From Staphylococcus phage vB_SsapH-Golestan-100: DNA of 64,000 nucleotides. Below the pieces are notes generated by a model that saw nothing but the letters and a program-made list of their open reading frames with translations, searched no databases and was not told the origin of the DNA. Made by a program: the position numbers and the translations under genes. This document shows positions 7,489 to 22,978 of this stretch, piece after piece. The stretch's first letter is position 1, and each line of letters opens with the position of its first letter. Where the stretch lies: sequence record LC647030.1; one strand, given 5' to 3'.

Positions 7489-7507
7489 TAGGAAGGATGA
7501 TTAACTA

Positions 7508-7732: not shown

Positions 7733-7738
7733 TAGATA

Positions 7739-7771: not shown

Positions 7772-7794
7772 AAAAAAAATATCCGCTTCTATGC

Positions 7795-7824: not shown

Positions 7825-7852
7825 AAGTATATACCAATTAGGAGGAGATATT

Positions 7853-8098
7853 ATGAGTAACGTATTTGCACAAGAACAATTTATTGACCGTTTAGAACAA
7901 GAAGGATTAGAAGTAGTAGAAGAGGATAGCTATTACACAGTAGAAGATGTAGAAGGTCATATTGCTATTGTAGACTTTGTAGGTGACATAGTAAACGTTT
8001 CTGATAATGAAGGGGTTAGAGTATCACATAACGTTGACCAAATCTACTTAGCGTTCTATGCAGTGATGGACGCACTGGATTATGAATTTGATGAATAA
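7853..8098 (+). CDS. hypothetical acidic protein, 81 aa
   Basis: AATTAGGAGGAG RBS. Confidence 0.6.
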   Translation: MSNVFAQEQFIDRLEQEGLEVVEEDSYYTVEDVEGHIAIVDFVGDIVNVSDNEGVRVSHNVDQIYLAFYAVMDALDYEFDE

Positions 8099-8103
8099 AG
8101 TTC

Positions 8104-8132
8104 TTGACACCACTCAAGGACTTTAGTATAAT
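8104..8132 (+). promoter_or_regulatory. consensus promoter (TTGACA-17-TATAAT)
   Basis: TTGACA 8104-8109, TATAAT 8127-8132. Confidence 0.6.
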
Positions 8133-8162
8133 AGTATTATAATCAATTAGGAGGAATTAGTT

Positions 8163-8585
8163 ATGAAATTACTAAAACAGATTATTAAGGTATTAGATGA
8201 GAGAGGTATTCAAGTAAATAACTTAAACATAGACGATGTGGTTAATGGAGAGTACGGAATTGAAATCAACAAAGAAATCACTATTGTCCATAGAGAAGGT
8301 TTGTATTATGCACTATATACGGAAGATGCTAGCTTAGAGGAGACATATTACAGTTCTCTAACAGAAGCATTAGAAAAGGTAGCTGACTATTTAAGTAGAG
8401 TAAAGGAAGGCTCTATCGTAAAATCTTTTCTTGGTGTATTCACATATAAAGTTATCAAACACAACAGTAAAGATTTGTATAACTTACTAAATGTAGATGA
8501 CAACACCCTATTATATACAGAGTGTGAAAGTATGGACTCTATTCAAGACAAGATTAACAGAGGTCAGTTTTATGCAGAACAATAA
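8163..8585 (+). CDS. hypothetical protein, 140 aa
   Basis: AATTAGGAGGAA RBS. Confidence 0.65.
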   Translation: MKLLKQIIKVLDERGIQVNNLNIDDVVNGEYGIEINKEITIVHREGLYYALYTEDASLEETYYSSLTEALEKVADYLSRVKEGSIVKSFLGVFTYKVIKHNSKDLYNLLNVDDNTLLYTECESMDSIQDKINRGQFYAEQ

Positions 8586-8904
8586 ATGGTACGCACTATG
8601 TGAATATAAAGGTAAAGGGAAGAATAAAAAGCCTTATCAAGTCCAAGCCTCTACAAGTAAAGAAAAGCTTTTAGATAGAAAGGATAGTTTAGAGTTAGAG
8701 TATCCTGATAGAGAATATGCAATAAAGTTAACAACAACCTTTGACAAAGAAAGAAAGTGGAGCGGGCTTAATCCGCTTCTCTTACTTAGAGTATATAAGC
8801 AATTGTATATTGTAAGTAGGAGTGATGACCCTACTAGATTAAATGTTGCATATAGCCTTCTGTTCACACAGAGGGTTTTTTATTTAAATGTTGACAGGAT
8901 TTAA
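8572..8904 (+). CDS. hypothetical protein, ~110 aa (uncertain; 3' end runs through a terminator hairpin and the next promoter)
   Basis: ATG at 8572 with an AGAGG RBS; the ORF track version starts at 8497 inside the previous gene. Confidence 0.3.
   Translation: MQNNKWYALCEYKGKGKNKKPYQVQASTSKEKLLDRKDSLELEYPDREYAIKLTTTFDKERKWSGLNPLLLLRVYKQLYIVSRSDDPTRLNVAYSLLFTQRVFYLNVDRI
8856..8884 (+). terminator. rho-independent terminator
   Basis: Stem ccttctg / cagaggg (one mismatch) followed by T7. Confidence 0.5.
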
Positions 8905-8919
8905 GTAGTGTGATATAGT
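8891..8919 (+). promoter_or_regulatory. promoter (TTGACA-17-TATAGT)
   Basis: TTGACA 8891-8896, TATAGT 8914-8919. Confidence 0.55.
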
Positions 8920-8949
8920 TAGTATATAAATTAATTAGGAGGAAAAGTA

Positions 8950-9135
8950 ATGGAGAATAGAGACATTATCAGTAACATATTAACAGAGTTAGAGTACATT
9001 GATACTAGTGAACTAAACCATAAACAACAAATGATGGTAGCTAGAGTAGAATCATTGTTAGATGACTTAGCATGGGAATTACAAGAAGAGGAAGCGGTTG
9101 AGTTTATGAAACAAATCAATGAGGAGGAAAAGTAA
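8950..9135 (+). CDS. hypothetical acidic protein, 61 aa
   Basis: AATTAGGAGGAAAAG RBS. Confidence 0.55.
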   Translation: MENRDIISNILTELEYIDTSELNHKQQMMVARVESLLDDLAWELQEEEAVEFMKQINEEEK

Positions 9136-10538
9136 TGAAACTATATTTAAACAGTAATATCGCAGAAGGAACACCTGAAGAGTTAGTAACTTATAAAGAA
9201 CTATTAAAGGAGAGAGGCCTAGACTCTGAGAAGTCATTGTTCCACTTTGGACATATGCATCAACCAACTGAAGAGGAAGCGGATGAACAAGAAGTAGATA
9301 ATTCTGTATATGATAAAGGAGCTTTCTATACAGTAACTGAGGAGGCTGAGGACTCACCATTACCTGTAGGGGCTATTCTCCAACATCTACACGGTAGAAT
9401 ATTCAGTGACTCTAAAGGACAACAATGTATCATCTCTAGACCATCTTTTGTAGATAGAGGTAATACACATTGGTTTGATGATAGTATTAACCAAGACCGT
9501 TTTGAACTAGCTAAACAATTAGGTATCCAACTAACGGACACTACAGACCTAGCACAAGCAACTGAAGGTAAGTACTTCAAAGTAACAGAAGAGCACTCAG
9601 ACTTAAGTGTAGGAGACCTTGTTACGATTGCTGAGGATGATAGAGATAACCTACCTCAGTGTAAGGATAAGCATGGTAACTTCTATTATGTATACCTAGG
9701 TGACCTAGAGCTAGTAGAAGATAACTCAGAATCAACTCTAAGCTCTACAGATGAAGCGGAAACCCCTTCTACAGAACTTAAAGTAGGAGATAGAGTAAAA
9801 GTATTAAAGAGTGAAGGAGGAGCTGTAGGAGAGGCTACTGTAACTGCTGTACTAGAAGATGGTGATGTAAGATTAGAAGGCAAGAGTGATAGTGGTGTGT
9901 ACTCATATAGATGGAGTAACAATATTTCAAACTTAGAGAAGGTTAAAGAAAAACCTGCATCCTTTGGGGCAATACAAGCTAAAGCCTACTTAGAGGATAA
10001 GTCAATAGACCAAGTAATTGAAGAAGTACAAAGCAAACACAAGCAAGAGTCTGATAATGCAAGAGTAGAGGAAGAAATCTATGCCTATTATGAAGTTGTA
10101 GACCCTGATGTATTTGCTAGTAGTGTAGAGAAAGGGACTGTATTCAAGGTGATAGGAAATACTTATACTCTACTAAACCAAGAAGGTAAGGACAGAGAAT
10201 ATATTAACGTAGTTACTTCTACAGGATTGACTCAAACAAGCCCTCTGAGAGATAGTGTGATTAAACCTATCATTAATGATTCATTCATTGCAGAACGCTT
10301 CAAGTTTGCTAAAGAAGTAGGCATTGTGCTTGCAGTAGATACAGACTTTGAGGAAGAGTGTAAAGACCACCACTTTAAGGTTACAGAGGAGGAACCACTC
10401 TCTAACTTTACCCCTACAGACATTCTAACTGTCCGTAGAGACGATAACACTAATGCTATTGCTTTCCAAGACCGTAATGGCAAGACACAGTATACACTAC
10501 TGGTAGATGTAAGAGAGATTGCTAGACCAAGTAAATAA
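9135..10538 (+). CDS. acidic protein, 467 aa, with an internal ~50-aa duplicated domain
   Basis: Two copies of ...GI.L..DTD....K.FKVTEE....L....D.T..DD (residues ~125-170 and ~385-430). Confidence 0.7.
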   Translation: MKLYLNSNIAEGTPEELVTYKELLKERGLDSEKSLFHFGHMHQPTEEEADEQEVDNSVYDKGAFYTVTEEAEDSPLPVGAILQHLHGRIFSDSKGQQCIISRPSFVDRGNTHWFDDSINQDRFELAKQLGIQLTDTTDLAQATEGKYFKVTEEHSDLSVGDLVTIAEDDRDNLPQCKDKHGNFYYVYLGDLELVEDNSESTLSSTDEAETPSTELKVGDRVKVLKSEGGAVGEATVTAVLEDGDVRLEGKSDSGVYSYRWSNNISNLEKVKEKPASFGAIQAKAYLEDKSIDQVIEEVQSKHKQESDNARVEEEIYAYYEVVDPDVFASSVEKGTVFKVIGNTYTLLNQEGKDREYINVVTSTGLTQTSPLRDSVIKPIINDSFIAERFKFAKEVGIVLAVDTDFEEECKDHHFKVTEEEPLSNFTPTDILTVRRDDNTNAIAFQDRNGKTQYTLLVDVREIARPSK

Positions 10539-10548
10539 ATAACCATCG

Positions 10549-10584
10549 ACCGCTTCTAGATAGATAAAGAAGCGGTTCTTTTAT
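10549..10584 (+). terminator. rho-independent terminator (accgcttc / gaagcggt stem)
   Basis: 8-bp stem, 12-nt loop, T-rich tail. Confidence 0.6.
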
Positions 10585-10693
10585 GTTTGAGTAACATAAT
10601 TTAAGATGCTGTCATACCAAGGTTTAAGTAAGGTTATTACAAGGCTTAAGTAAGAAAAAATAGAGTAAATCCTATATTTGAGTAACAAAGTGT

Positions 10694-10722
10694 TTGACAG
10701 CCCCTCTATTATATGTTATCAT
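10694..10722 (+). promoter_or_regulatory. promoter (TTGACA-17-TATCAT)
   Basis: TTGACA 10694-10699. Confidence 0.45.
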
Positions 10723-10752
10723 TAGGTATAGTCAATTAGAGGAGGAATTAAT

Positions 10753-11091
10753 ATGAGAATGGTTAGTATATATGAGTATTTCAAAGACAAGGAAGGACAA
10801 CGGTTGAGTGTAGGAGATAATAAAGAGGTACTGTTCAACTCAGTACGTTACCACGGTTCTGAAGAGGAGTTGGCTTTATACTTTAAGTATAAGGAGTACC
10901 CAATAGCAATAAGAGTAGATAAACCTCAAGCAGATTTAAGATTACGATTAAACAAGAAGATAACAGGGCTACAAAAGGATACCTTTACCCCTGTAGAGAA
11001 CCTAGACTCAACCTTATTAACCTATCTAGGTAAGTTTGCAGAAGAGATGGAAGAAAAAGTAGAGTATAAACTATTTGATTGGAGGAATTAA
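10753..11091 (+). CDS. hypothetical protein, 112 aa
   Basis: TAGAGGAGGAATTAAT RBS. Confidence 0.65.
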   Translation: MRMVSIYEYFKDKEGQRLSVGDNKEVLFNSVRYHGSEEELALYFKYKEYPIAIRVDKPQADLRLRLNKKITGLQKDTFTPVENLDSTLLTYLGKFAEEMEEKVEYKLFDWRN

Positions 11092-11092
11092 T

Positions 11093-11194
11093 ATGGTTAC
11101 AGTAGGAGCGTTATTTACAGGATTCTTTGTAGTCCTTGTAATAGGTATAATGATAGCAGGACTCGTTACACTAGTAATAGATAACAAGAAGTAA
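11093..11194 (+). CDS. 33-aa hydrophobic peptide (not in the ORF track)
   Basis: GGAGGAATTA RBS then ATG; MVTVGALFTGFFVVLVIGIMIAGLVTLVIDNKK; TAATATG overlap with the upstream gene. Confidence 0.45.
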   Translation: MVTVGALFTGFFVVLVIGIMIAGLVTLVIDNKK

Positions 11195-11217
11195 ATAAGA
11201 GAAGCGGAGGAGATATA

Positions 11218-11445
11218 ATGAGTTTAGTAACAGTAATAGTATTAACTGTAGTCATAGCCATGTTGTTAGGCTTAATAGCAAGTAAACTAATATTGTGGTT
11301 TGTAGATGCTTGTCAAAGGGATGAGAACAATATAACAGAGATTAGAGTAGTATTAACCCTATTAATAGTCAGCTTAGGAGTAGACCTAGCCTTTGCTGTT
11401 GATGGAGCAGTAAGAATACAAAATAGAATCCTATACTTTTTGTAG
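11218..11445 (+). CDS. small membrane protein, 75 aa
   Basis: GGAGGAGATATA RBS; two TM helices. Confidence 0.6.
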   Translation: MSLVTVIVLTVVIAMLLGLIASKLILWFVDACQRDENNITEIRVVLTLLIVSLGVDLAFAVDGAVRIQNRILYFL

Positions 11446-11454
11446 ATAGAAGCG

Positions 11455-11479
11455 GAGACCTTTACGGTCTCTTTTTTTT
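11455..11479 (+). terminator. rho-independent terminator
   Basis: gagacc-tttac-ggtctc followed by T8. Confidence 0.65.
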
Positions 11480-11519
11480 GTCTATAATAGCTTGACAAAT
11501 AGGGTGAAGTATGCTTTAT

Positions 11520-11850
11520 TGACAAAGGCGTAATAGTGTGGTAGTGGAGGGTAGAGGTTGAATAGTAGTGACATGGAGGCTGATAGATAGAGTCGAAGTC
11601 GGTTAGCGTGCTTGGGGCTTCCTCTATTCTTTTACCATTTGTTTATTTCCTTCCTCTACTATTCCTCCCTTTGATTGGCTGATTAATTGTTTGGTTGTTT
11701 CTCTATTACTCTTCCCTTCCTTACTCCCTATGCTATTGTCCCTCTATTGTTTTCCTACTCCTCCATTACTCTACTCCTATATAATAAAAGGCAATAGAGC
11801 TATTACCCTACTGCCTTTATACTTACTATTGTTATTACTATTATTATACT
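11520..11850. repeat. noncoding strand-asymmetric region (G/A-rich head, then a CT-rich body with degenerate CCTCTATTNNT direct repeats)
   Basis: cctctattct, cctctactatt, ctctattact, cctctattgt, ctccattact, ctactcctat; sits at the convergence of the + and - gene blocks. Confidence 0.4.
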
Positions 11851-12843
11851 CTACATGTTAAGTAACTTACGAGCCCAATCAGGAGAATTATCACAAAACG
11901 CTTTAACTTCTTCTATGTTATTTATAACCCCTTTTTGAATCTTGTAGATATACACAAAGTATTTAGTTATGAAAGCTTGGAAAGGTTCATACCTATTACC
12001 CTCTATAAACTCATACTGCATCTCTTCTGATAATAAATTTATCTCTGTAAAGAATGTATTATACATAGTATCAAATAAGCAAGGTATATCCTTACTATAC
12101 TCACTTAGTAATAGTATTCTTTCCTCATGACTTAGCGATACATCAAAATCAATAATACTTTTAATAGTTTTAGGTAATGAGTCGTAGTCTAGTAGTATAG
12201 ATAATAGTTCTTTCTTATTAAATATAAGGTTGAGTTTCTTGTATGCGACTATAAAGTCTTCTTTGACTACCTTTTTATCTACTAAGTCTTGTAATTTACT
12301 GTAATAGTTTTTAATTTGTTTATTCATATTAACCTTAGTAAATGCTGTCTCTAGATTATAAAATTCTTGTATAGAACTACTCTCTATATTAACACCTAAC
12401 TTATGTTTAAGCCATTTTGATTCTAGCTCAGATAGTCTACGTTCATAGATAGATTCATCTTTTGTTTCTATATGGTCTCCATGTATAGAGTCATAGTATA
12501 CAGCATCAATTATATAAGTATCAGCATTATCAAATCCGTATTTATCTAAGGCTTTTTTAAGTAGTTTACCACTACCCTTATACTTTGAATCGGGCTTTCC
12601 TTTATGTTTCCCTATATATGCTCTACCTGATTGTTTAAACACTGTTATATAGACATAACCATACATATGTTCTGAAAGTTTTTCAGACTGACCTCTTACG
12701 CTATGACCAAAAGTAAAAACATAGCTATAATGTTTTAATCTTCCTTTTCTACATTCTGATTGTACAATGTTATTTCTAACGTCTCTTACTTGAATTTCAC
12801 CTAAACCTTCTTGGTATACAAAATTATTTATTTTTTCTGTCAT
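11851..12843 (-). CDS. GIY-YIG family homing endonuclease (free-standing)
   Basis: GYVYITVF...YIGKHKG...GSGKLL motifs; start placed at MTEKINN (AAGGAG RBS); a 17-bp palindrome atatactactagtatat lies just upstream. Confidence 0.8.
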   Translation of the reverse strand: MTEKINNFVYQEGLGEIQVRDVRNNIVQSECRKGRLKHYSYVFTFGHSVRGQSEKLSEHMYGYVYITVFKQSGRAYIGKHKGKPDSKYKGSGKLLKKALDKYGFDNADTYIIDAVYYDSIHGDHIETKDESIYERRLSELESKWLKHKLGVNIESSSIQEFYNLETAFTKVNMNKQIKNYYSKLQDLVDKKVVKEDFIVAYKKLNLIFNKKELLSILLDYDSLPKTIKSIIDFDVSLSHEERILLLSEYSKDIPCLFDTMYNTFFTEINLLSEEMQYEFIEGNRYEPFQAFITKYFVYIYKIQKGVINNIEEVKAFCDNSPDWARKLLNM

Positions 12844-12933
12844 ATCTTTCATCTCCTTATTTGATATACTACTAGTATATAATAAAACTCTATCCAAGTC
12901 AATAGATAGAGTTAAAATAGTTATTTTGTTTTC

Positions 12934-13299
12934 TTACTTGTTATCCCACTCAAAGTCTAGTTCTAAGTCATTTATCTCTCCTGAGTTAACTTTCTCTATA
13001 AACCCTTCTAACTGGTGTTTAATAGCTGTACTGAAAGTAGATATAGGTACTACAATAACCATAGAGGCCTGAACTTTTTTATCTATTAAGAATTTTAAAC
13101 AATTATCATCTTCAGTACCTTTTATAGTTATTCTTAAATCCATGCCTTTATAGCTGAACACTAAGTATAAGCTCTCATCACTACTTAAATTTCTATGGCT
13201 TACATAGGATAGATATACCTCATAACTACCTACTTTTAATCTCATGTTTTCTCTTTCTTGAAAATAGTCACTGAGCTTACTTATGTTATAATTATCCAT
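12934..13299 (-). CDS. hypothetical protein (~121 aa; start at MDNYNIS)
   Basis: AAGGAGGAG RBS before the internal ATG. Confidence 0.55.
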   Translation of the reverse strand: MDNYNISKLSDYFQERENMRLKVGSYEVYLSYVSHRNLSSDESLYLVFSYKGMDLRITIKGTEDDNCLKFLIDKKVQASMVIVVPISTFSTAIKHQLEGFIEKVNSGEINDLELDFEWDNK

Positions 13300-13316
13300 A
13301 TTCTCCTCCTTATTAT

Positions 13317-13511
13317 TTACCATCGTTCAATAGATACAATATGTTTGGTGTCAATAATAACCTTTTTATCTTTACCCCATTTAGTTACTTCTATATAATC
13401 ATTACCCATAACATCTCTGTATACAGAACCTAACGCTTTGTAACTATTATAATAGGTGTATTTTCTATCATCAACAGTTCTTACTGTGTAGTTATATTTT
13501 CTACTTATCAT
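13317..13511 (-). CDS. hypothetical protein, 64 aa
   Basis: GAGGAGGAActatAATG start context. Confidence 0.55.
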   Translation of the reverse strand: MISRKYNYTVRTVDDRKYTYYNSYKALGSVYRDVMGNDYIEVTKWGKDKKVIIDTKHIVSIERW

Positions 13512-13711
13512 TATAGTTCCTCCTCATCAAACCACATTTCTAATACAGTGTCTGTTTCTGTATCTATATATAAATTTAACTCCCCGTGCATATAATGACT
13601 AATTACATCAGAGTCTGAGAACCCTACTTCATGACCGTCCCAATCTGACAACCAATGTAATCTATGATAATCTAAATTTTCTAGTGTTATTCCTTGTTCA
13701 GTATTTAACAT
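13511..13711 (-). CDS. hypothetical acidic protein, 66 aa
   Basis: AAGGAGAG RBS. Confidence 0.55.
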   Translation of the reverse strand: MLNTEQGITLENLDYHRLHWLSDWDGHEVGFSDSDVISHYMHGELNLYIDTETDTVLEMWFDEEEL

Positions 13712-13757
13712 TCTTTGACTCTCCTTCCAAGTTAAAAGTTAGTTTCAATTTCTACTA

Positions 13758-14111
13758 TTACCAACTAATATGAATAATAGGAACTAAAGTACTATCTGTA
13801 TAGCCACAGTTAAAGTAATCCTTAGCTATACCCTTCTCTGACCATCTAGGTTTCCTAACTTGTGTCTGTACTTTAAATCCTAACCTCTTATAGTGAAGCC
13901 CAATCTCTTTTAAGTACTCTAGCTTAGATAAAGAAAACTCCGTAGGATAATCTGTTCTTAGGTTCACAACAATATAGTCCTTACCTAAGCTACTACTGTT
14001 ATTAATTAAGTAGTCTATCTTGTTATAGATATATGTTAAATGTTGTTCCTTAGTTATTACTTTAGAATCCTTATGCTGTTTTACTTGTTTACGTGCTTTC
14101 TTAGCGTTCAT
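13758..14111 (-). CDS. hypothetical basic protein, 117 aa
   Basis: AAGGAGGAAtaaggATG. Confidence 0.6.
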   Translation of the reverse strand: MNAKKARKQVKQHKDSKVITKEQHLTYIYNKIDYLINNSSSLGKDYIVVNLRTDYPTEFSLSKLEYLKEIGLHYKRLGFKVQTQVRKPRWSEKGIAKDYFNCGYTDSTLVPIIHISW

Positions 14112-14113
14112 CC

Positions 14114-14341
14114 TTATTCCTCCTTATAAATTTTATTTTTAAAAAAGCCTACTACATCCTCAACATCGAGTACAGATAGAAATGATTTATTTCCTGTAAT
14201 TCTAAAGCCACTGTCTACGATTCTATTTGCAATGTAATAACCCTCAACCTTTAGTGATGCATATTTATTATCTATGTCTCCTAAAAATTCTACTTGAAAT
14301 CCTAACTGATTTAATTGAACATAAATGTCTGACAAGCTCAT
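14114..14341 (-). CDS. hypothetical protein (~75 aa; start at MSLSDIY)
   Basis: AAGGAGGAAttatAATG; TAATG overlap with the upstream gene. Confidence 0.55.
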   Translation of the reverse strand: MSLSDIYVQLNQLGFQVEFLGDIDNKYASLKVEGYYIANRIVDSGFRITGNKSFLSVLDVEDVVGFFKNKIYKEE

Positions 14342-14547
14342 TATAATTCCTCCTTCTCTTTCCTGATTGCACTTAGTAGCCAATCAAGATACTTCTCACG
14401 TTGAATCTCTTCTATCTTGCTTTCAAACTTATCACGTTCTAGTCCTTGGTTTATTATTCTAGAAGCTACTGCTAATCTCTTTGACTCTTCACTTAGATTA
14501 TCCTTGTAACTGTAAGTAACTAGTGCTTTATCTAAATCTAGTTCCAT
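14341..14547 (-). CDS. hypothetical protein, 68 aa
   Basis: ORF with RBS. Confidence 0.55.
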   Translation of the reverse strand: MELDLDKALVTYSYKDNLSEESKRLAVASRIINQGLERDKFESKIEEIQREKYLDWLLSAIRKEKEEL

Positions 14548-14565
14548 ACTATCTCCTCCTTAGTC

Positions 14566-15003
14566 CTATTTTAATCTACCTTGCTCTAAACTTACATTAG
14601 TATAGTTATTTTTTAAATCTTCGAGAGTCATTCTTTTAGATAAACTATAATTCTCATCTAGTAGTCTATAAACTTGATATTCATTTCTTTCTGCATAGTA
14701 ACTACTCTCTTCTACTACTAAAGTAAACCATTCTCCATATGCTTCGATGTCATCTCCAGGTAGCCAATCATTTTCTGTGAGTAGTTCTAAAACTTTAATT
14801 AGCATGTCATTATCCGACCAATGCCTTCTACCACCTGTTTCATTTTCTTGACGAGTGATATAACTATCATAACCTATGCAAACCTTAACCTTATTGTTAA
14901 TACCTACTGCTTCTTCATATAAATCTACGTGATTTAGTTCGATACCTTTTTCACTCATAGCTTTTACAATTAAACTTAATAATTCTGTTGTGTTATCTAC
15001 CAT
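14566..15003 (-). CDS. hypothetical protein, 145 aa
   Basis: AAGGAGGAActatAATG. Confidence 0.6.
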   Translation of the reverse strand: MVDNTTELLSLIVKAMSEKGIELNHVDLYEEAVGINNKVKVCIGYDSYITRQENETGGRRHWSDNDMLIKVLELLTENDWLPGDDIEAYGEWFTLVVEESSYYAERNEYQVYRLLDENYSLSKRMTLEDLKNNYTNVSLEQGRLK

Positions 15004-15015
15004 TATAGTTCCTCC

Positions 15016-15213
15016 TTATTTATCTGCTACATATTCATAGAACCCGACTTCTTCTCTGAGCTTAGCTTCTGATAGTGATTTAGTATGCTCTCTAGAAACA
15101 TCTTCTCCTTCTACCCATTTTACAAGCTCAATAAGTGCTTCTTCTAAATACGCTCTAGGACAATCTTCATTCTCCCAGTAGTTAACTCCTTCTTTTTCCC
15201 AACTATTACTCAT
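15016..15213 (-). CDS. hypothetical protein, 65 aa
   Basis: GAGGAGGAGctatAATG. Confidence 0.55.
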   Translation of the reverse strand: MSNSWEKEGVNYWENEDCPRAYLEEALIELVKWVEGEDVSREHTKSLSEAKLREEVGFYEYVADK

Positions 15214-15476
15214 TATAGCTCCTCCTCTATTAGTTCGTAAGTTTTATGAAAAATGTCATAATCACAAGCATAAAATTCTCCTTCAACACCCTTTATGACA
15301 TAGCTGTCTTTAGGTACTACCATAGTACCTTCTAGTGTATTTACAACAAGTATATAAGTATCACTTGATTCATAAGCTAAGTGTACTGTACCACCACTCC
15401 AATCATATAACTCTTGTTTATTATCTCCTTTATATTGCATAACCTCTACTTCTACTGGTTTCTTTCTAGCTAACAT
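15213..15476 (-). CDS. hypothetical protein, 87 aa
   Basis: GAGGAGGtttatAATG. Confidence 0.6.
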   Translation of the reverse strand: MLARKKPVEVEVMQYKGDNKQELYDWSGGTVHLAYESSDTYILVVNTLEGTMVVPKDSYVIKGVEGEFYACDYDIFHKTYELIEEEL

Positions 15477-15506
15477 TATAAACCTCCTCTATTAGTTGTT
15501 AATATG

Positions 15507-15544
15507 ATTATATAATAAAAAACTACCTATGTCAATAGGTAGTT
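15507..15544 (-). promoter_or_regulatory. composite intrinsic terminator plus promoter on the minus strand (-35 TTGACA inside the hairpin)
   Basis: 10-bp stem aactacctat / ataggtagtt; minus strand reads TTGACA-taggtagttttttatta-TATAAT, so the U-tract of the terminator forms the spacer. Confidence 0.55.
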
Positions 15545-15552
15545 TTAGCTTA

Positions 15553-17238
15553 CTAATACTGTATTTCTTTCCCAGCAATAAGTTTATTTTGATATTGTCC
15601 TTGACGGATGTAGATAGTGCTTTCAGGTGCTCCTGAACTTATACTGAATTCACTACCAAACCCTGCGCAATTGTCTAACCACATATTACTTCCTGAAGAT
15701 GTTTGGAAATCTTTTCCTTGGTAGCTCTCAAAGCCTATACATCCTAGATTCCAAGAGTTAGTACCCTGATTAACATCAGCTATATTTCCTCCATCATTTC
15801 TACCGTAAGTACCGTTAACCCGTATGACAGTTAATCCATCATGAACAGTAGAGCCATTATTAGATTTAGCACCTGCTGTACCTTTTTCAAATCCATTATC
15901 TAAACCTATACAATCTATCTCAGTTATAATAGGTTTAGAAGAATCCGCACCTATATGATAGTTAAACCCGTCCATATAGTTATTAGATGCTGTTGATTTA
16001 CTTACTACTACTTCTTTACCTCCAATAACCTCAAGACCATTACCATTAGTTTGAGAAGAGAAGTTTAAAATACAATTATTAACATATAGATTATTGTTTT
16101 TGTTTAGCTCAAATCTAGCTGGTCTAGCTCCCCCATATATGTTTAGTTTTTCTATATAGAAATTATTTGGTACATTAGTAGCTAACAAGTTCTGAGAAGC
16201 TAACAATGGTATAACCATATTATTAGGAGTTTTAGAATTAAAGTTAACAAAAACTTTTGTTCCGTCAGAAAACCAAGAAAAAGGAGTCTCCTCTACCATA
16301 GCTAAGGAGCTAACATTTACAAATTCATTATAGATGTTGTTACTTGCCTCACTAAAGTCTACGACTCTCTTAACTGCTGACCTTGTAAACTCATAAGTGT
16401 TATTCTTACCATAGGACTTAACCCATGTCGGCTCATCTGCCATGAATAGATTAACATTAGAGCCTAGGCCTATTATGTTTATACTCATATTGTTTATTGG
16501 TAATAAAAGAACACCGTTAGTTCTAAAGTAGTTACCCTCGTTAATATAAAGAGTATCACCAGTACTTAATACTGATTGAGCTTTTTTTAATGTTTTAAAA
16601 GAGCTATTTTGAGTTGAGCCATCGTTACTATCATTACCATTAGTACCATCTACATAAACCTCTTTACCGCCTGTAACTTTATTATCTTCTATGTTGTATT
16701 TCACACCAAAGGTACCTCTAGCATCAGTCATTATTCTACCTTTTAAAGGGTATTCTTTTACAGGAAAATCTAAAGGAGTGTTTACAGTAATAGGTAACTT
16801 AGGAGCAAAGTTACCATCAAGCCCTGGTATACCTTGAGCACCTTGTTCCCCTTTTAACTCTTGTTTGTCAGCCTCTGTTAAATCATTAAAAGTTAACTTA
16901 TCACCTTTAGCACCTCCTATAGACTCTAACCACTCTTCAGGTGTACCAGTAAACCCATTATCTACTGCTATATCATAAGCAGATTTAGGCTTAACTAGTA
17001 AGTGGTCTTTGAAGTAGAAAGAAATCTCTTTATAAGAAGATTCTAGTGTTGTAAACTCAGGTACTACGACCTTCTCTGATTCATAGTTGTCTCCCATCCA
17101 AGCTATATAAAACTCCCCTTGAGGGTATGTAGTATTTGGAGCCAGGTTAGCTATAATAACGGAGCCTTGGTCACCTTCTATATTATAGCCTTTTGCTAAT
17201 AAATTACCTTCCTTATCATAAGCTTCTAAATGTGGCAT
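15553..17238 (-). CDS. adhesin/receptor-binding-like protein (FN3-like N-domain, short collagen-like GXY run, right-handed beta-helix-like body)
   Basis: N-terminus homologous to 6967/7508 products; GEQGAQGIPGLDG; repetitive N/G/I-rich beta-helix-like segment NNLYVNNCILNFSSQTNGNGLEVIGG. Confidence 0.7.
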   Translation of the reverse strand: MPHLEAYDKEGNLLAKGYNIEGDQGSVIIANLAPNTTYPQGEFYIAWMGDNYESEKVVVPEFTTLESSYKEISFYFKDHLLVKPKSAYDIAVDNGFTGTPEEWLESIGGAKGDKLTFNDLTEADKQELKGEQGAQGIPGLDGNFAPKLPITVNTPLDFPVKEYPLKGRIMTDARGTFGVKYNIEDNKVTGGKEVYVDGTNGNDSNDGSTQNSSFKTLKKAQSVLSTGDTLYINEGNYFRTNGVLLLPINNMSINIIGLGSNVNLFMADEPTWVKSYGKNNTYEFTRSAVKRVVDFSEASNNIYNEFVNVSSLAMVEETPFSWFSDGTKVFVNFNSKTPNNMVIPLLASQNLLATNVPNNFYIEKLNIYGGARPARFELNKNNNLYVNNCILNFSSQTNGNGLEVIGGKEVVVSKSTASNNYMDGFNYHIGADSSKPIITEIDCIGLDNGFEKGTAGAKSNNGSTVHDGLTVIRVNGTYGRNDGGNIADVNQGTNSWNLGCIGFESYQGKDFQTSSGSNMWLDNCAGFGSEFSISSGAPESTIYIRQGQYQNKLIAGKEIQY

Positions 17239-17299
17239 ATTATAGTCTCCTATCTATTTGTGTATTATATGAGTAATATAACATCTTATTCACATTAGG

Positions 17300-17530
17300 T
17301 TAGACACAATCTACCATCCACTCCCAATCCCAAAAGTCTCTTATCTTATAACCATCTAACTCATGTTTATTGCCTTTTAGTATACCTGTAATAATATACC
17401 TATCATGGCCTTCTCTTACGTATTCTTCACCCAGCTCTTCTAAGAGGTCTTTTGTATGATTTTGAGTACCTGCATATATTGCTGTTTTACTATCCTCCTC
17501 AATTACATATAGAGAATAAATCTCATACAT
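17300..17530 (-). CDS. hypothetical protein, 76 aa
   Basis: GGAGGGGAtgtatAATG. Confidence 0.55.
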   Translation of the reverse strand: MYEIYSLYVIEEDSKTAIYAGTQNHTKDLLEELGEEYVREGHDRYIITGILKGNKHELDGYKIRDFWDWEWMVDCV

Positions 17531-18309
17531 TATACATCCCCTCCGATAGTTAAAGGGTAGCCATCTTGTCTAGTCAATTGCTTTTTATAGTTCTCTACTG
17601 TGTCATCTAAGTGCATAATAACTACTTCTGTATTGAATCTTTTTAAATCTTCATCTAACATGTCACATGTCCCCATAATGTTTTTATAATAGTTAGCATG
17701 TACTGGGCTTTTATTTAAAGAAACATCTAAATATAGTCCTGTTAGTCTCAACTCAGGGAATCTATCCATAAACCAAGTATAGTGACGGAACAAACTGTCA
17801 TTACCGCTTTGAAATTTTTCTGTAGTATCTCCTGAGTAAATAATCATGTCGGTATTATCTTTTATTAGAGTAATACTATACGTTTTAACTTGAGGAACAT
17901 GCTTTACTTCTTCAAAGATGACTTCTACATTACCTTTATAAATATATTGTTTACCATAAGGGACTACTTCTAAATTGAACATAGATTCTTCAATACCTGA
18001 GATTAGTAGATAGTCCAATAAATCTCTTCTCAAGGTATTATAAATCAGTATATTAACCTTAACATCTTTTGCATAATACATCCACTCAATTAACGTTCCT
18101 AAACTTCCTACATGGTCTGTATGCATGTGTGTAAGGATGATATTAACTTCTTTATACTTATCTAACCCTTTTTCTCTAAACGTGTTGAAGACTGTTGAAC
18201 CACAATCAATCATAAACACTTTATCATCCTCTATAAAATACCAACTATTATTTCCATACTCCTGTGAATTAAATGCTGACCCAAAACCTAATGATTTTAA
18301 TTTAAACAT
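17530..18309 (-). CDS. metallo-beta-lactamase-fold hydrolase (RNase Z/J-like nuclease or phosphodiesterase)
   Basis: HxHxDH motif ILTHMHTDHVGSLG. Confidence 0.8.
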   Translation of the reverse strand: MFKLKSLGFGSAFNSQEYGNNSWYFIEDDKVFMIDCGSTVFNTFREKGLDKYKEVNIILTHMHTDHVGSLGTLIEWMYYAKDVKVNILIYNTLRRDLLDYLLISGIEESMFNLEVVPYGKQYIYKGNVEVIFEEVKHVPQVKTYSITLIKDNTDMIIYSGDTTEKFQSGNDSLFRHYTWFMDRFPELRLTGLYLDVSLNKSPVHANYYKNIMGTCDMLDEDLKRFNTEVVIMHLDDTVENYKKQLTRQDGYPLTIGGDV

Positions 18310-18314
18310 ATTTC

Positions 18315-18872
18315 CTACACCCTTTCCATTCTCTTATTCATATATTTTAAGCTATTATAAAACTCTCTAGCGTGGTGCTTGTAATAGAAATTCTTTTTGT
18401 GAGACTTACCATTGTCATCAATCCATAAAACGTTCCATGTATTTGTATCTAGTGTGTCTGTTATGTCTTGAATAATACTTCTTATCATAATTAAGCACTC
18501 TCCACTTAGTCCTTCATTTAATGCTTCTTCTAATGCATCCATCTCTATGTCCTCATTAGCATAGCCTCTACCACCATAAAACAAGTAGTTTTCATAAGCA
18601 TCTCTAAAATCATAGAATCTAGTTTTAGAGCTTATATTAGGGTTAGCTAAAATGTCTTCACTCTTCTCCAACCAGTATTCCCTCAATTCATATATAGAAG
18701 GTTGTTCTACTTTGTCACTTCTTTTTACTACGTCTTTCTCTACCTTTAAGTCCTCTTTACTATAGTTACGTTCTTGTATCATAAACTCAACCCACTTTTT
18801 AACATCTTCTATATCTTCATAGATTTTGTCAACGTGGGATTTAACTGAACATAGGTATACTGCATAATGCAT
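18315..18872 (-). CDS. hypothetical protein, 185 aa
   Basis: GAGGAGGAGaatcaagATG. Confidence 0.6.
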   Translation of the reverse strand: MHYAVYLCSVKSHVDKIYEDIEDVKKWVEFMIQERNYSKEDLKVEKDVVKRSDKVEQPSIYELREYWLEKSEDILANPNISSKTRFYDFRDAYENYLFYGGRGYANEDIEMDALEEALNEGLSGECLIMIRSIIQDITDTLDTNTWNVLWIDDNGKSHKKNFYYKHHAREFYNSLKYMNKRMERV

Positions 18873-19194
18873 CTTGATTCTCCTCCTCTTCTTCTTCTTT
18901 CCATCCTATAGTAATGTAACCTATATAAGTTTCTTGGTCATTACTATAACTACTTACAGTATAACCTTTATCTAACAATTTGTCAATTATCCATTCTTTT
19001 GTAGCTTCATTTATGCTGTAATTAAAGAAGTCTGCTTTAGTACTAAAAAGCCCTTTATGTGTTGCTACGTGAATTTTATAGTTAACTTCACACCACATTA
19101 CGTAGTATCCTCCTAGTTTGCTTACCTTCTCTCTATCCTTTTTAAACCGTTTCTTTTGTTTTTCTGATTTTCTTCTAGCTTTGTTGCTATTCAT
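18841..19194 (-). CDS. hypothetical protein with basic N-terminus, 117 aa
   Basis: AAGGAGGGGtagtAATG. Confidence 0.55.
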   Translation of the reverse strand: MNSNKARRKSEKQKKRFKKDREKVSKLGGYYVMWCEVNYKIHVATHKGLFSTKADFFNYSINEATKEWIIDKLLDKGYTVSSYSNDQETYIGYITIGWKEEEEEENQDALCSIPMFS

Positions 19195-19237
19195 TACTAC
19201 CCCTCCTTAATTAACCCTTCCTATTTAATGTACCTTT

Positions 19238-19275
19238 ATTGTATAATAAAAAAGAACCTAAGTCAATAGGTTCTT
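19238..19275 (-). promoter_or_regulatory. second composite terminator plus promoter (TTGACT-17-TACAAT spanning the hairpin)
   Basis: Stem aagaaccta / taggttctt; minus strand TTGACT-taggttcttttttatta-TACAAT. Confidence 0.55.
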
Positions 19276-19287
19276 TAATAATAAATG

Positions 19288-19800
19288 TTAACTTTTATAG
19301 AATACTTCGATAGAAACAATTTGATTACCATTTACCACTATTTGATGATTGTTTCTTTCTACTACTAGACACTTATGCTCCCCACTTATACACTTCATAG
19401 CATTCTGTGCTAACTCTCCTAAGCTAACGTGTGGAGCAAGGTCTTCCTTATCAAAGTGCTCTCTAAACCCTTCAGTCTTGAAAATTACAATACCACTAAT
19501 TTCTTTTTCAGGTTCCTCTTTACCCTCTGCAATCCTTCCCGCTAAGTCAATTTGATTGTTAAAGAACTCTAGGTCATCAACATCTGTACCTTTTAGTTTG
19601 ACTCCATTAGTTCCTGGTAGTTCTTTACCAACAATAAACCGATTAAGAAAAGAAGTATAGTGTAATAACTTAAGAATTTTATCATCCTTTAGGTTTTCAA
19701 CCTTACTCAATCTAGCTCTAAGTTCTTTTTGTATTTTAGCATCCACTATAACTATTACAGTTAAACCAATAACTAAAAGACATAATACTGCGTATACCAT
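19288..19800 (-). CDS. N-terminally membrane-anchored protein, 170 aa
   Basis: N-terminal TM helix MVYAVLCLLVIGLTVIVIV. Confidence 0.6.
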   Translation of the reverse strand: MVYAVLCLLVIGLTVIVIVDAKIQKELRARLSKVENLKDDKILKLLHYTSFLNRFIVGKELPGTNGVKLKGTDVDDLEFFNNQIDLAGRIAEGKEEPEKEISGIVIFKTEGFREHFDKEDLAPHVSLGELAQNAMKCISGEHKCLVVERNNHQIVVNGNQIVSIEVFYKS

Positions 19801-19820
19801 CTCTAATTCCTCCTTTTAAT

Positions 19821-20003
19821 TTACAATTCATTCATATGTTCAAGCATGTTATCATAGATAGCAAAAATTATGCTACCTGCAATTGGTAAGAAAAAGTCTA
19901 TAGGCTCATCGTACCAAATATTTGTACCTAACCAACCAAACAAAAAGTTAAAAAATAGTATACCACTAAAATAACCGATAAACTTCTCTAGTATACGCAG
20001 CAT
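19821..20003 (-). CDS. small membrane protein, 60 aa
   Basis: AAGGAGGAG RBS; hydrophobic. Confidence 0.5.
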   Translation of the reverse strand: MLRILEKFIGYFSGILFFNFLFGWLGTNIWYDEPIDFFLPIAGSIIFAIYDNMLEHMNEL

Positions 20004-20482
20004 TCCTGCTCCTCCTTAGTTACCCACGTAGCACATAATACCCCATCTCTATCTCTATAAATAAAAGGCTCTACATTGTTAATGTCATATTGTCTTTGAT
20101 ACTTAGAGTTTGTTCTTCTTTTTTCCATTTCATTAAACTCTAGTATGTGACCTTTTAAAATCGTAAGTAACCTTTTATTTAGTTTCTCATTATCTTCTAA
20201 CCTTAGTTTATTTCTAGGAATCCAACAGTAACCAGCAGAACCTACAAGAAGTGTAACTTTCTCATTAGATACATAACCTTTCATGTCTAGTGACAGTACT
20301 AAATGAGTAAAACTAGGTCTAAACTCTCTATCTGAGTCTAAAAACATTCTATGCAACTTGTTTTCCATAGTATCTAATTTCTCTTTACGTTCATTGTTTC
20401 CCAGCATCATGTATCTGTCTGTGTATGGGCTATCTGTTAGTAGCTCCCTTTTATAAACTTTTAGTTCACTAAAAGCAATCAT
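19988..20482 (-). CDS. hypothetical protein (~164 aa; start at MIAFSELK)
   Basis: AAGGAGGAGtatactaATG. Confidence 0.55.
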   Translation of the reverse strand: MIAFSELKVYKRELLTDSPYTDRYMMLGNNERKEKLDTMENKLHRMFLDSDREFRPSFTHLVLSLDMKGYVSNEKVTLLVGSAGYCWIPRNKLRLEDNEKLNKRLLTILKGHILEFNEMEKRRTNSKYQRQYDINNVEPFIYRDRDGVLCATWVTKEEQECCVY

Positions 20483-20627
20483 TAGTATACTCCTCCTTAT
20501 CCTTTTCAGGAGAGCCACCCTCATTTTCAAATCTTTCCAACTGCGCTCTTAGTTCTTTGTTTTCTCTTCTAAGTTCCTCATTTTCCTTTATTAAAGCTTC
20601 TTGGTAATCGTAGTCATATTTATTCAT
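20469..20627 (-). CDS. 52-aa coiled-coil peptide (not in the ORF track)
   Basis: GGAGGttatttatATG; MNKYDYDYQEALIKENEELRRENKELRAQLERFENEGGSPEKDKEEYTNDCF; overlaps the next start out of frame. Confidence 0.4.
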   Translation of the reverse strand: MNKYDYDYQEALIKENEELRRENKELRAQLERFENEGGSPEKDKEEYTNDCF

Positions 20628-20647
20628 ATAAATAACCTCCTAGAATT

Positions 20648-20983
20648 TTAATCCCAATTTATTCCTAAATCTAAAACCTCAGATGTTAAGTCTTCCTCAT
20701 ACTTCATCATAGACTCAATTAAACCTCCTAGCTTTTTATGGCTTCTGTAGGCATGGGAGTCCCTTAGAATGAATTCACCACAAGGATTCTCTTCCATACT
20801 TACTACCTCTCTATCAACATAAGTACTTGTTACAAATAACTTAATAGCAATGTCCTTTTTTGTGAAGAATAAGAAGAAAGAAGTACTCCCTAAATGAACA
20901 TCGTCTAGTTCATACCCTTTAATAGATTTTCCTTTATTGAGTAAAAAGTAGTTATAAACTTTGATAATATTATTCTTTTTCAT
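20648..20983 (-). CDS. hypothetical protein, 111 aa
   Basis: ATAGGAGGAtacagaATG. Confidence 0.6.
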   Translation of the reverse strand: MKKNNIIKVYNYFLLNKGKSIKGYELDDVHLGSTSFFLFFTKKDIAIKLFVTSTYVDREVVSMEENPCGEFILRDSHAYRSHKKLGGLIESMMKYEEDLTSEVLDLGINWD

Positions 20984-20994
20984 TCTGTATCCTC

Positions 20995-21564
20995 CTATTC
21001 AAATGACTCTAGATAATCATCTAGCTCTCTTTGTTTAGCTTCCATCTCACTTTGCAAACCTGCATTGTCAATCTCACTTTGTAACTTATCTACAACTTTT
21101 GAATCAGGGTAAAGCTCTCCTTGACTGTTATCCCCTTCTACACCTTCATTACTTAGCTTGAAGTCTATGCCATCAATCTCCCCTGTATAGTTTAAGCTAG
21201 CAATGTACTCTTCACCTTTAGGATTCACATAGCTAACAGCTTTTCCAGGGTTCATTGTCCAAGTATTACCTTCTTGGTCAACGATTCCATTAACATCTTT
21301 ACCTTCATCAATCATATTCAATACGTCTACCATTTCAGGTGTTGTGTTTTCTTCTGTAGTGTTGTTTTGTTCAGAACTTTGTTGATTATCATCACCCTTT
21401 GGTGTTGACTGTTCTGTTGAACTCTCTCCTTTCTTGTTTTGCTGTGATACTTTGTTACTGCTTAATTCCTTAACGTTGTCTCTAGTGTCAAAGTAGGCAA
21501 ATACTCCAAAACCTAATGCTCCTATAAGTGCTACTGCTATAATTGTTAATAATACATTTTTCAT
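20995..21564 (-). CDS. secreted or membrane-anchored protein, 189 aa
   Basis: N-terminal signal/TM MKNVLLTIIAVALIGALGFGVFAYF, then an S/Q/N-rich linker. Confidence 0.65.
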   Translation of the reverse strand: MKNVLLTIIAVALIGALGFGVFAYFDTRDNVKELSSNKVSQQNKKGESSTEQSTPKGDDNQQSSEQNNTTEENTTPEMVDVLNMIDEGKDVNGIVDQEGNTWTMNPGKAVSYVNPKGEEYIASLNYTGEIDGIDFKLSNEGVEGDNSQGELYPDSKVVDKLQSEIDNAGLQSEMEAKQRELDDYLESFE

Positions 21565-21632
21565 AATTAATACCTCCTTGTTTTATATAATACTACTATA
21601 GCATGTTACTTTTGCTATGTCAACAACTTTCT

Positions 21633-21932
21633 TTAAATTCTGTTATACATTTCTTTACACATGTATCTGATGAAGATTGCCATTGCATAGTTCATATTAA
21701 CATCTTCATTTTTAAGATAAAAATCATATATAAAATCCCATGCGATAAAAGATATATAAGAGTCTACTACTGTACTACCTTTTCTAACTTCAAAACTTAG
21801 AACTCCATCCTTATAACTTTTGACTTTAAATTCTGAATCAGTATTTAGTTTCTTAGGGAAGTGCAACCATCCTTTTTCATAAAGGTATTCTACTGAGTTA
21901 TCAAATGCTCTTTTTGCTATATCTTGTTTCAT
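21633..21932 (-). CDS. hypothetical protein (~99 aa; start at MKQDIAK)
   Basis: AAGGAGGttttatttATG. Confidence 0.55.
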   Translation of the reverse strand: MKQDIAKRAFDNSVEYLYEKGWLHFPKKLNTDSEFKVKSYKDGVLSFEVRKGSTVVDSYISFIAWDFIYDFYLKNEDVNMNYAMAIFIRYMCKEMYNRI

Positions 21933-21962
21933 AAATAAAACCTCCTTAATGTTTATACTATA

Positions 21963-21991
21963 AGTATACACTAAGGAGATTAGTAAGTCAA
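21963..21991 (-). promoter_or_regulatory. minus-strand promoter (TTGACT-17-TATACT)
   Basis: Revcomp of 21963-21991 reads TTGACT tactaatctccttagtg TATACT. Confidence 0.5.
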
Positions 21992-22000
21992 CTATTTTAT

Positions 22001-22768
22001 TTAATTTATAACACCATATTGTTTATTATATTCTGCGATAGTACCTCTGTTCTCTAGTTCTTCAAAACGCTCATCCATTTCATGGTTACGTAGAATACTT
22101 TCTACTACTTCTACCACAGGATGTCTTTGAACTTCCGTTAAGTTAAGGTGGTCAAAGAACTTCTTGTCTTTATCCTTCTTATATAGACCATCTAGTAACT
22201 GATACAAACCATTGCTCTCAGGTTTTCTTAGTGTCTTATCATCACACTGAGCAAAGTTACCTAAGAAAATAAATTTACTATTATTACCAGCTCTAGTAGC
22301 AATTGCACTGATTGTGTTTATGTCTAAGTTTTGAGCTTCATCAATAATAAAGTATACATCATTCAGTGAACGTCCACGTATAGACTGGATAGAGTCGAAG
22401 AAGACTTTTTTACGTGATTCATCTTTACCTTCCATTAATATATAGTCTTTAATGTTACTCTTCTTATCCATGACTTCTAGGTTATCCATAAAAGGAGCTA
22501 CAAATGGGAAAATCTTGTCTTGAGAGTCACCTGGTAAGAACCCTTGAGCCATTCCTATCTCTACTTGTAGTCTAGTGTAAATAAGCTTACGGTAATCTTT
22601 CTGCTCAATAACCTGCTCTAGTCCTACTGCTTGAGAGATTAATGATTTACCACAACCACTTTGTCCTGAAATAAAAGTAAAAGGTTTGTTGTTTGTTAAA
22701 TATTGAAAAGCTAACTCTTGTTCCTCATTTTGAGCACTAATTCCAAAATATGACATATAATGTACCAT
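22001..22768 (-). CDS. phoH: PhoH-like P-loop ATPase
   Basis: Walker A GQSGCGKS, Walker B IIDEAQN; start could be the second ATG (22756). Confidence 0.85.
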   Translation of the reverse strand: MVHYMSYFGISAQNEEQELAFQYLTNNKPFTFISGQSGCGKSLISQAVGLEQVIEQKDYRKLIYTRLQVEIGMAQGFLPGDSQDKIFPFVAPFMDNLEVMDKKSNIKDYILMEGKDESRKKVFFDSIQSIRGRSLNDVYFIIDEAQNLDINTISAIATRAGNNSKFIFLGNFAQCDDKTLRKPESNGLYQLLDGLYKKDKDKKFFDHLNLTEVQRHPVVEVVESILRNHEMDERFEELENRGTIAEYNKQYGVIN

Positions 22769-22978
22769 CCTCTTTAGTTTATTTAACTTCAGTTCTTCCT
22801 ATAATATAATACTTATGATAAATGCTGAGGTGTATAGAGTTACTACCACACCAGCTAGTATAGCATCAATCTTATCATTCTTCTTTATGCTATGGATAAT
22901 AATGAAAATATTAGCACCTATAAATGCAATCATTATTAATGCCATGAATACCACAGCCATAATCATTCCTACACTCAT

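Follow-up and report, generated by a model that had tools for sequence, protein, structure and literature searches.

In the 64,000-nt stretch of sequence record LC647030.1 analysed here (the window), which comes from Staphylococcus phage vB_SsapH-Golestan-100, three short elements on the minus strand each place the -35 box of a near-consensus promoter in the loop of a terminator-like hairpin, with the T-tract of the hairpin inside the promoter spacer. The window belongs to a Twort-like myophage of Staphylococcus (Herelleviridae, Twortvirinae), and most closely related to it are two phages of S. capitis, S2G3 and Fi4S2, with about 94-96% identity where the sequences can be aligned. The nested terminator-promoter arrangement in this phage is real, and the sites are probably functional. 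With a probability of roughly 0.75, we read the elements as nested intrinsic terminators and host sigma-A early promoters that lie between co-directional genes and belong to a dispersed family resembling the promoter-early stem-loop (PeSL) elements of T4-like phages. The mechanistic part of this reading, by which the unit would stop upstream transcription and restart it for the next genes, appears well supported for this phage by sequence and by analogy. The kind of element is already known from cassettes of T4-like phages, and it also sits uncommented in published promoter and terminator tables of a related phage.

Read along the minus strand from 15546 to 15507, element 1 is AAAACTACCTA-TTGACA-TAGGTAGTTTT-TTATTA-TATAAT. 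Its hairpin (15519-15546) folds as AAAACTACCTAT-TGAC-ATAGGTAGTTTT with the -35 box TTGACA (15535-15530) in the loop, and the 3' arm TAGGTAG together with TTTTTTATTA (15529-15513) forms a 17-nt spacer in front of the -10 box TATAAT (15512-15507; spacer and -10 box together 15507-15529). The promoter agrees with the consensus at 12 of 12 positions. The hairpin begins 6 nt past the TAG stop codon (15555-15553) of an open reading frame (ORF) of 561 amino acids (aa). When the 6-7 nt rule of PMC7698491 was applied, transcription was predicted to start near 15500, giving a leader (15474-15500, minus strand) with the Shine-Dalgarno sequence GAGGAGG at 15489-15483 and the ATG of an 87-aa gene at 15476-15474. 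Element 2 (19238-19276, minus strand) reads AAAGAACCTA-TTGACT-TAGGTTCTTT-TTTATTA-TACAAT, with its hairpin at 19276-19251, the -35 box TTGACT at 19266-19261, a 17-nt spacer and the -10 box TACAAT at 19243-19238 (10 of 12 consensus positions). It starts 11 nt past the stop of a 170-aa ORF, whose last base is 19288, and is followed on the same strand (19192-19208) by the Shine-Dalgarno sequence AAGGAGGGG and the ATG (19194-19192) of a 117-aa gene. Element 3 (12874-12913, minus strand) reads AACTCTATCTA-TTGACT-TGGATAGAGTT-TTATTA-TATACT and also agrees with the consensus at 10 of 12 positions; its hairpin (12913-12886) begins 20 nt past the stop of an upstream 129-aa ORF, and the -35 box TTGACT (12902-12897) is separated by 17 nt from the -10 box TATACT (12879-12874). 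The Shine-Dalgarno sequence AAGGAG and candidate ATGs at 12852 or 12843 of an ORF of about 330 aa lie just downstream (12841-12857, minus strand).

In all three elements the -35 hexamer is the hairpin loop, and the 3' arm of 7-9 nt plus the T-tract and ATTA of 8-10 nt add up to exactly 17 nt. The T-tracts lie on the minus strand at approximately 15518-15510, 19250-19243 and 12885-12878, respectively. Every copy has the sequence features of an intrinsic (Rho-independent) terminator, namely a stem containing G+C, a short loop, an adjoining U-tract and a position after a stop codon; the U-tract has six U in elements 1 and 2 and just four in element 3. The 5' flank is AT-rich each time, and the 3' end is the strong Shine-Dalgarno sequence and start codon of the next gene, with the ATG 31-43 nt beyond the -10 box. 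A sequence-only reading of the window had quoted the minus strand at 15507-15544 and 19238-19275 and had placed the -35 hexamer in the hairpin loop and the T-tract in the 17-nt spacer. Re-reading both sites confirmed the quoted letters and the placement, and our promoter and terminator scan lists each as a terminator-like hairpin together with a promoter. That reading had counted only two units, and overlooked the third copy at 12913-12874 (minus strand), which the same scan lists.

RNA folding gave free energies of -15.1, -12.8 and -13.4 kcal/mol for elements 1, 2 and 3, with stems of 10-12 bp. The z-scores ranged from -4.5 (element 1) to -5.6 (element 2), and none of 200 shuffled sequences folded as well. 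The earlier description of the hairpins as strong is a relative one, since each stem has just three G-C pairs. An AT-rich genome (33% G+C) might also bring promoter-like hexamers and hairpins together by mere coincidence, and loose promoter-like matches (at least 9 of 12 positions) were indeed no commoner in the window than in shuffles (84 compared with 80.8). Near-consensus promoters, in contrast, were twice as frequent as expected (52 compared with 25 ± 4.7 in shuffles), and at 10 of these 52 sites the -35 box was covered by a stem of 7 bp or more, where 1.3 such sites were expected (maximum 4; 100 shuffles). Stems of at least 9 bp with at least three G-C pairs, which just 0.31% of window positions carry, lay over the -35 box at five sites compared with a mean of 0.017 (maximum 1; 300 dinucleotide shuffles). 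The register is moreover identical in the three copies, copies are conserved in S2G3, and the design is shared by many phages. Coincidence is extremely improbable, and is already effectively refuted by the shuffle statistics. In the minus-strand block that carries the elements (11.8-26.8 kb), all three internal intergenic terminator-like hairpins are of the nested type. An Rfam search of 11500-20500 at permissive thresholds returned nothing at the elements, its sole hit being a sub-threshold STnc380 at 11777-11881, and a tRNA scan of the window found no tRNA.

Transcription data from a phage of the same subfamily bear on whether such sites act as both signals. In Kayvirus vB_SauM-515A1, Kornienko et al. 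(2020) mapped terminators from down-steps and early promoters from up-steps in RNA-seq coverage (PMC7698491). Four stretches of DNA appear in both of their lists, as terminators in Table S3 and as promoters in Table S2: t69/p68 (TU14), t194/p195 (TU33), t198/p199 (TU34) and t204/p205 (TU35) (PMC7698491). Terminator t69 ends in AACCACCTATTGACATAGGTGGTTTTTTATGCTATAG and promoter p68 is TAACCACCTA, TTGACA, TAGGTGGTTTTTTATGC and TATAGT, giving the layout CCACCTA-TTGACA-TAGGTGG-TTTTTTATGC-TATAGT (PMC7698491). All four pairs have a design identical to that of the window elements, the spacer TTTTTTATTA matches too, and p208 has the stem of element 1, CTACCTA/TAGGTAG (PMC7698491). This dual listing supports the terminate-and-restart reading. 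The tables list promoters and terminators separately, and the likeness to the window elements is one of design, not of established site orthology. In the searched passages of PMC7698491 and of a 2023 review of Herelleviridae transcriptomics, no discussion of a physical overlap between promoter and terminator was found. In a second class the T-tract directly adjoins the -35 box; it is represented by Kayvirus t31, t40, t54, t105, t144 and t160 (PMC7698491) and in the window by 8854-8896, 38166-38197 and 35520-35554. Several Kayvirus late promoters also lie inside terminator loops (t75/pL74, t109/pL110 and t157/pL158; PMC7698491), and nesting may apply to late promoters too.

An inverted repeat around a -35 box could also be read as DNA. 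Its arms would then be mainly an operator, on which a dimeric phage or host regulator switches early promoters, with termination incidental. Elements 1 and 2 share the inner arms ACCTA/TAGGT with phage phiSA_BS2, with Kayvirus p68, p195 and p208, and with an IMG/VR contig, and such recurrence across genera could mean a protein-binding site or an extended -35 preference. Hairpins over a -35 box without a T-tract also exist, in Kayvirus p208 and at two plus-strand sites of the window that are both conserved in S2G3, so that the hairpin may have a role beyond termination. At 8097-8132 an 11-bp hairpin (-12.8 kcal/mol) covers the -35 box of a promoter with 12 of 12 consensus positions. At 57473-57521 a perfect 17-bp hairpin (-17.7 kcal/mol, z-score -6.5) has the -35 box TTGACG in its loop and a 3' arm that fills the entire 17-nt spacer; without a T-tract, it is not a canonical terminator. 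The operator reading accords less well with the way the stems vary. Among the copies the outer arms differ freely by compensatory changes (CTACCTA/TAGGTAG, GAACCTA/TAGGTTC and CTCTATCTA/TGGATAGAG), while the T-tract is conserved. Element 2 is identical in its S2G3 copy. Between element 3 and its orthologue in S2G3, two stem positions of the right arm differ, and a G·U pair keeps the pairing at both. Such pairs spoil the symmetry of the DNA and preserve pairing in RNA of the sense strand only. Element 3 is more stable in the sense direction (-13.4 compared with -9.5 kcal/mol in antisense, a difference of 3.9), because its G·U pairs exist solely in the minus-sense RNA. No U-tract was found in antisense at any of the three elements, the T-tract being present on the sense strand only. 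A bidirectional terminator was ruled out on these grounds, as the antisense direction has no U-tract and its fold at element 3 is 3.9 kcal/mol worse. Changes that keep pairing, together with the strand asymmetry, favour an RNA terminator read along the genes over either a symmetric operator or a bidirectional terminator. The inner CTA/TAG can be explained by the promoter itself, because (C/G)TA also stands in front of the -35 box in many hairpin-free early promoters of Kayvirus. RNA-seq down-steps fall on the Kayvirus equivalents as well, and we consider it unlikely that the repeat is mainly an operator.

The genes around element 1 suggest what such a unit may be used for. Compared to S2G3, the window has a precise insertion of 1,836 bp (15485-17320), which falls between S2G3 record bases 16918 and 16919 and separates two genes that overlap in S2G3. 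The inserted unit consists, in order, of a late promoter, a late structural gene, the terminator nested in the early promoter (element 1, near the 3' edge), the leader and a ribosome-binding site (RBS). The structural gene is the 561-aa ORF (15553-17238, minus strand), which matches the tail fiber family phrog_32409 (E-value 7e-134) and has homologues annotated as tail fiber in phages St14.GH and JDYN. It has an Ig-like N-terminus and a hydrolase-like C-terminus, is absent from S2G3 and Fi4S2, and may determine host range. Besides St14.GH and JDYN, large Staphylococcus phages (about 263-269 kb) and siphoviruses have homologues of it. The late-promoter motif TGTTATATTA (17274-17283, minus strand) lies 36 nt before the tail-fibre ATG; it agrees perfectly with the Kayvirus late extended -10 consensus, taken from PMC7698491, and is the sole match to that consensus within the block. 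Elsewhere, late-promoter-like TG(T/C)TATATTA motifs were seen on the plus strand in the 51383-51446 region, at 5634 and at 35302, with the one at 51437 placed 22 nt beyond a 12-bp terminator-like hairpin.

The tail-fibre loci of St14.GH and JDYN were compared with this locus. Both have a late-like TGATATATTA upstream, and downstream a terminator hairpin followed by TTGACA-17-TATACT. This tandem junction, the usual layout where one transcription unit gives way to another, occupies the same functional slots in the same gene context as element 1. In St14.GH and JDYN, however, the -35 box comes about 11 nt beyond the T-tract, whereas the signals in the window are nested, which saves about 30 nt. 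Since the same slots are filled by a different sequence and a different geometry, the terminate-then-restart function gains good comparative evidence.

A profile built from five cassettes found exactly three copies in the window (E-values 6e-19 to 4e-17) and two orthologues in S2G3, with the next best match at an E-value of 0.01. The three copies lie within 6.4 kb, with 2.6 kb between elements 3 and 1 and 3.7 kb between elements 1 and 2. When the cassette of element 1, from hairpin to RBS, was compared with phage records, it matched 857 places in 310 records, 284 of them from Staphylococcus phages. The best matches were intergenic sites in the replication module of phiSA_BS2 and PSU4 (genus Baoshanvirus), with 87-89% identity over 62-70 nt, an identical stem, a similar leader and an unrelated downstream protein. 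The phiSA_BS2 genome has at least eight nested elements, and the element 3 stem AACTCTATCTA/TAGGTAGAGTT occurs there twice, as direct repeats 1.76 kb apart. Because function does not constrain the stem sequence, stems shared by non-orthologous sites point to common descent and movement, and by their sequences the elements appear to be a dispersed repeat family that spans genera of Twortvirinae. When IMG/VR was scanned with the promoter half of the motif only, about 13 of 120 unrelated hits had a stem of at least 8 bp around the -35 box, so that the nested design is widespread. It was also seen with quite different, G+C-rich stems in unrelated uncultivated viral contigs (loci L065, L035, L095, L011 and L116). 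A further variant lies in the window at 32231-32265 (plus strand), between a 50-aa and a 290-aa ORF, where an 11-bp hairpin (-14.4 kcal/mol) has the -35 box TTGACT in its 5' arm, followed by TTTTTG and the -10 box TATACT.

This dispersal could alternatively mean that the elements serve mainly as linkers for recombination or are a selfish repeat. Their promoter-terminator appearance would then be secondary, and their main effect would be that gene cassettes are inserted, deleted or exchanged, in the manner of the mini-circle shuffling of PeSL. The block that carries them is hyperplastic: within 15 kb it differs from S2G3 by about 11 indels or replacements of single genes. Homology to S2G3 stops at the RBS/ATG just 3' of element 1 and, for element 3, at the start codon that closely follows it, which places both elements at indel borders. 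At element 3, a segment of 1.2 kb (11659-12839) stands in place of three other genes of S2G3; the ORF of about 330 aa on the window side (11851-12852) has a weak homing-endonuclease-like match (phrog_314, E-value 4e-13), and one of the three S2G3 genes carries a Panacea domain. The same stems stand at non-orthologous loci across genera, including the direct repeats of phiSA_BS2, and the phage encodes a UvsX-like recombinase. These features are also compatible with a regulatory function, and element 2 and most of the indels do not fit a linker. The longest exact run common to the window copies is 12 nt, and both junctions of the 1,836-bp insertion show just GGAG(G) microhomology. Simple PeSL excision or integration predicts another nested element at the upstream edge of that insertion; none was found there, only the late-promoter motif and the GGAG microhomology. 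A role mainly in recombination thus seems improbable. None of the seven flanking proteins had a Pfam match, and PHROGs was informative just for the 561-aa tail-fibre ORF and, weakly, for the homing-endonuclease-like ORF, there taken as 348 aa.

Under the preferred reading, RNA from the upstream gene would fold into the 10-12-bp hairpin with its U-tract, and the polymerase would terminate within TTTT(TT)ATTA. The same DNA would serve as a promoter for the host sigma-A (sigma-70-type) RNA polymerase. The -35 box is free of pairing constraints because it is itself the 6-nt loop, and the 3' arm of 7-9 nt with the T-tract of 8-10 nt would supply the optimal 17-bp spacer before the TATAAT-like -10 box, followed by a predicted leader of 25-45 nt with a strong Shine-Dalgarno sequence. 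The genes downstream of each element would thereby depend on an early promoter of their own instead of on read-through. Element 1 would insulate the tail-fibre gene, under its late promoter, from the early genes that follow. Termination and initiation in vivo at the three copies are something we infer by analogy with the Kayvirus sites. The least certain step is that cassettes may travel with, or border, inserted and replaced genes in the way PeSL do. The core of the earlier proposal, a unit that stops upstream transcription and immediately restarts it, agrees with the anatomy, the Kayvirus RNA-seq and the slots at the tail-fibre homologues, while the overall reading is only partly supported. 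That proposal had also missed the membership of the elements in a dispersed, PeSL-like family of repeats and the apparent association of this family with indel borders.

Several observations weigh against the preferred reading, among them the recurrent inner arms and the variants without a T-tract described above. With three G-C pairs per stem, and four consecutive U in element 3, termination may be partial. Element 2 coincides with no breakpoint, and most of the approximately 11 indels in the block have no nested element, which leaves the link to shuffling with two of the three elements and the dispersal across genera. We put forward only tentatively, and think it rather doubtful, the broader idea that the elements are the Herelleviridae counterpart of PeSL, that is, mobile regulatory linkers by which self-contained cassettes, such as a late tail-fibre gene in an early operon, could be inserted, deleted or swapped without disturbing the expression of their neighbours. 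A polymerase released inside the next promoter might then be re-used directly, in a termination-coupled re-initiation.

The sequence-only reading had also tentatively grouped the elements with hairpins that have GAAGCGG arms, as variants of one cassette family. GAAGCGG is the Chi sequence of S. aureus, recognised by RexAB (PMC8022716, PMC11442139). The exact motif occurs 19 times in the window compared with 0.72 expected, an enrichment of about 26-fold, and clusters at 7.7-11.5 kb (7783-11455) and 60.4-62.7 kb (60468-62659), in both coding and non-coding contexts. Of the 26 copies in the 149-kb genome of phiSA_BS2, 23 fall within approximately 10 kb of one end or the other, and S2G3 has 19 sites within record positions 1-15 kb and none in 15-50 kb. 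The motif is thus exact, over-represented and near the DNA ends, as expected of Chi. The inverted repeat CCGCTTC/GAAGCGG around a -35 box at 7783-7813 is present as described, within a plus-strand feature (7783-7824) whose promoter is TTGACA-18-TATACT, but its T-run is on the opposite strand. It has no T-tract on the sense strand, a separate terminator at 7738-7761 precedes it, and it lies outside the cassette family. Of the two terminators said to carry GAAGCGG arms, the one at 10548-10577 does so, whereas at the other, at 11449, the motif abuts the terminator without forming its arms, the stem there being GGAGACC/GGTCTCT. Membership of these hairpins in the nested family was rejected, as Chi enrichment in terminal-repeat-like regions and at genome termini explains them better. 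The terminal clustering suggests protection of the DNA ends from RexAB, and a description of it for Twort-like phages was not found in the literature.

Other repeated signals and rearrangements were seen in the window. A second cassette, without a hairpin, has the form TATAnT-agtatata-accaattaggagga-N-ATG, with a nearly identical -10 box, short leader and Shine-Dalgarno sequence, and precedes many early genes, also across phages; examples are 7813-7853, 8126-8165, 35559-35610 and 61012-60968 in the window and approximately 3826-3869 in loci L123/L124. Three direct repeats of about 100 bp (43628-43730, 44856-44955 and 45174-45275) are 79-85% identical; at least two of them carry a minus-strand TTTACA-18-TATAAT promoter (43713 and 44938), and a run of 20 T follows at about 45281-45300. 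Alignment to S2G3 shows two inverted blocks (1-7768 and 45295-59139) and a collinear one (7769-26854), and nothing in S2G3 1-50 kb matches 26855-42262. The junctions at about 7768, 26854, 42263, 45295, 59139 and 59994 are intergenic regions with promoters or terminators and with poly-T or poly-A runs. No other phage record was found that spans the 7768 or 26854 junction, and the differences may reflect either a true rearrangement or the assembly.

Phage therapy counts Twort-like phages of staphylococci among its leading candidates, and they are being engineered more and more often. Nested cassettes of about 40 nt that mark the borders of transcription units would show engineers where genes can go in or out without polar effects, and could supply synthetic biology in Gram-positive bacteria with compact insulators. 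If the cassettes do shuffle genes as PeSL do, a mechanism of genome plasticity would be extended from T4-like phages to an unrelated family, and it would help to explain how accessory host-range genes, such as an extra tail fibre, move between phages.

The closest known system is PeSL, in which a sigma-70 early promoter is combined with a terminator stem-loop, the 5' flank is AT-rich, and the 3' end carries a Shine-Dalgarno sequence with ATG. PeSL occur repeatedly in hyperplastic regions and at indel borders and can form mini-circles; in one of five subclasses the stem-loop overlaps the -35 box (PMC2839356, PMC4122927). In bacteria, extensive coupling between the initiation and termination sites of adjacent units is claimed in the accessible part of a preprint (bioRxiv 10.64898/2026.08.19.745784). 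The window elements share with PeSL a near-consensus sigma-70-type early promoter joined to a stem-loop that would terminate upstream transcription, a span from stop codon to ATG, the AT-rich 5' flank and the occurrence of several conserved copies in hyperplastic early regions. PeSL sit beside indels or replacements between close relatives, as elements 1 and 3 do and element 2 does not. The window phage is a member of Herelleviridae that infects Staphylococcus, whereas PeSL belong to Straboviridae of Gram-negative hosts, and the window stems are AT-rich (ACCTA/TAGGT) in contrast to the GGGG/CCCC stems of PeSL. The window geometry is stereotyped, with the -35 box exactly in the loop and the T-tract as spacer. 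The elements thus have the anatomy and distribution that characterize PeSL, and neither the T4-like host phage nor the GGGG...CCCC stem. By this analogy, we treat them as functional counterparts of PeSL in Herelleviridae and not as homologous members.

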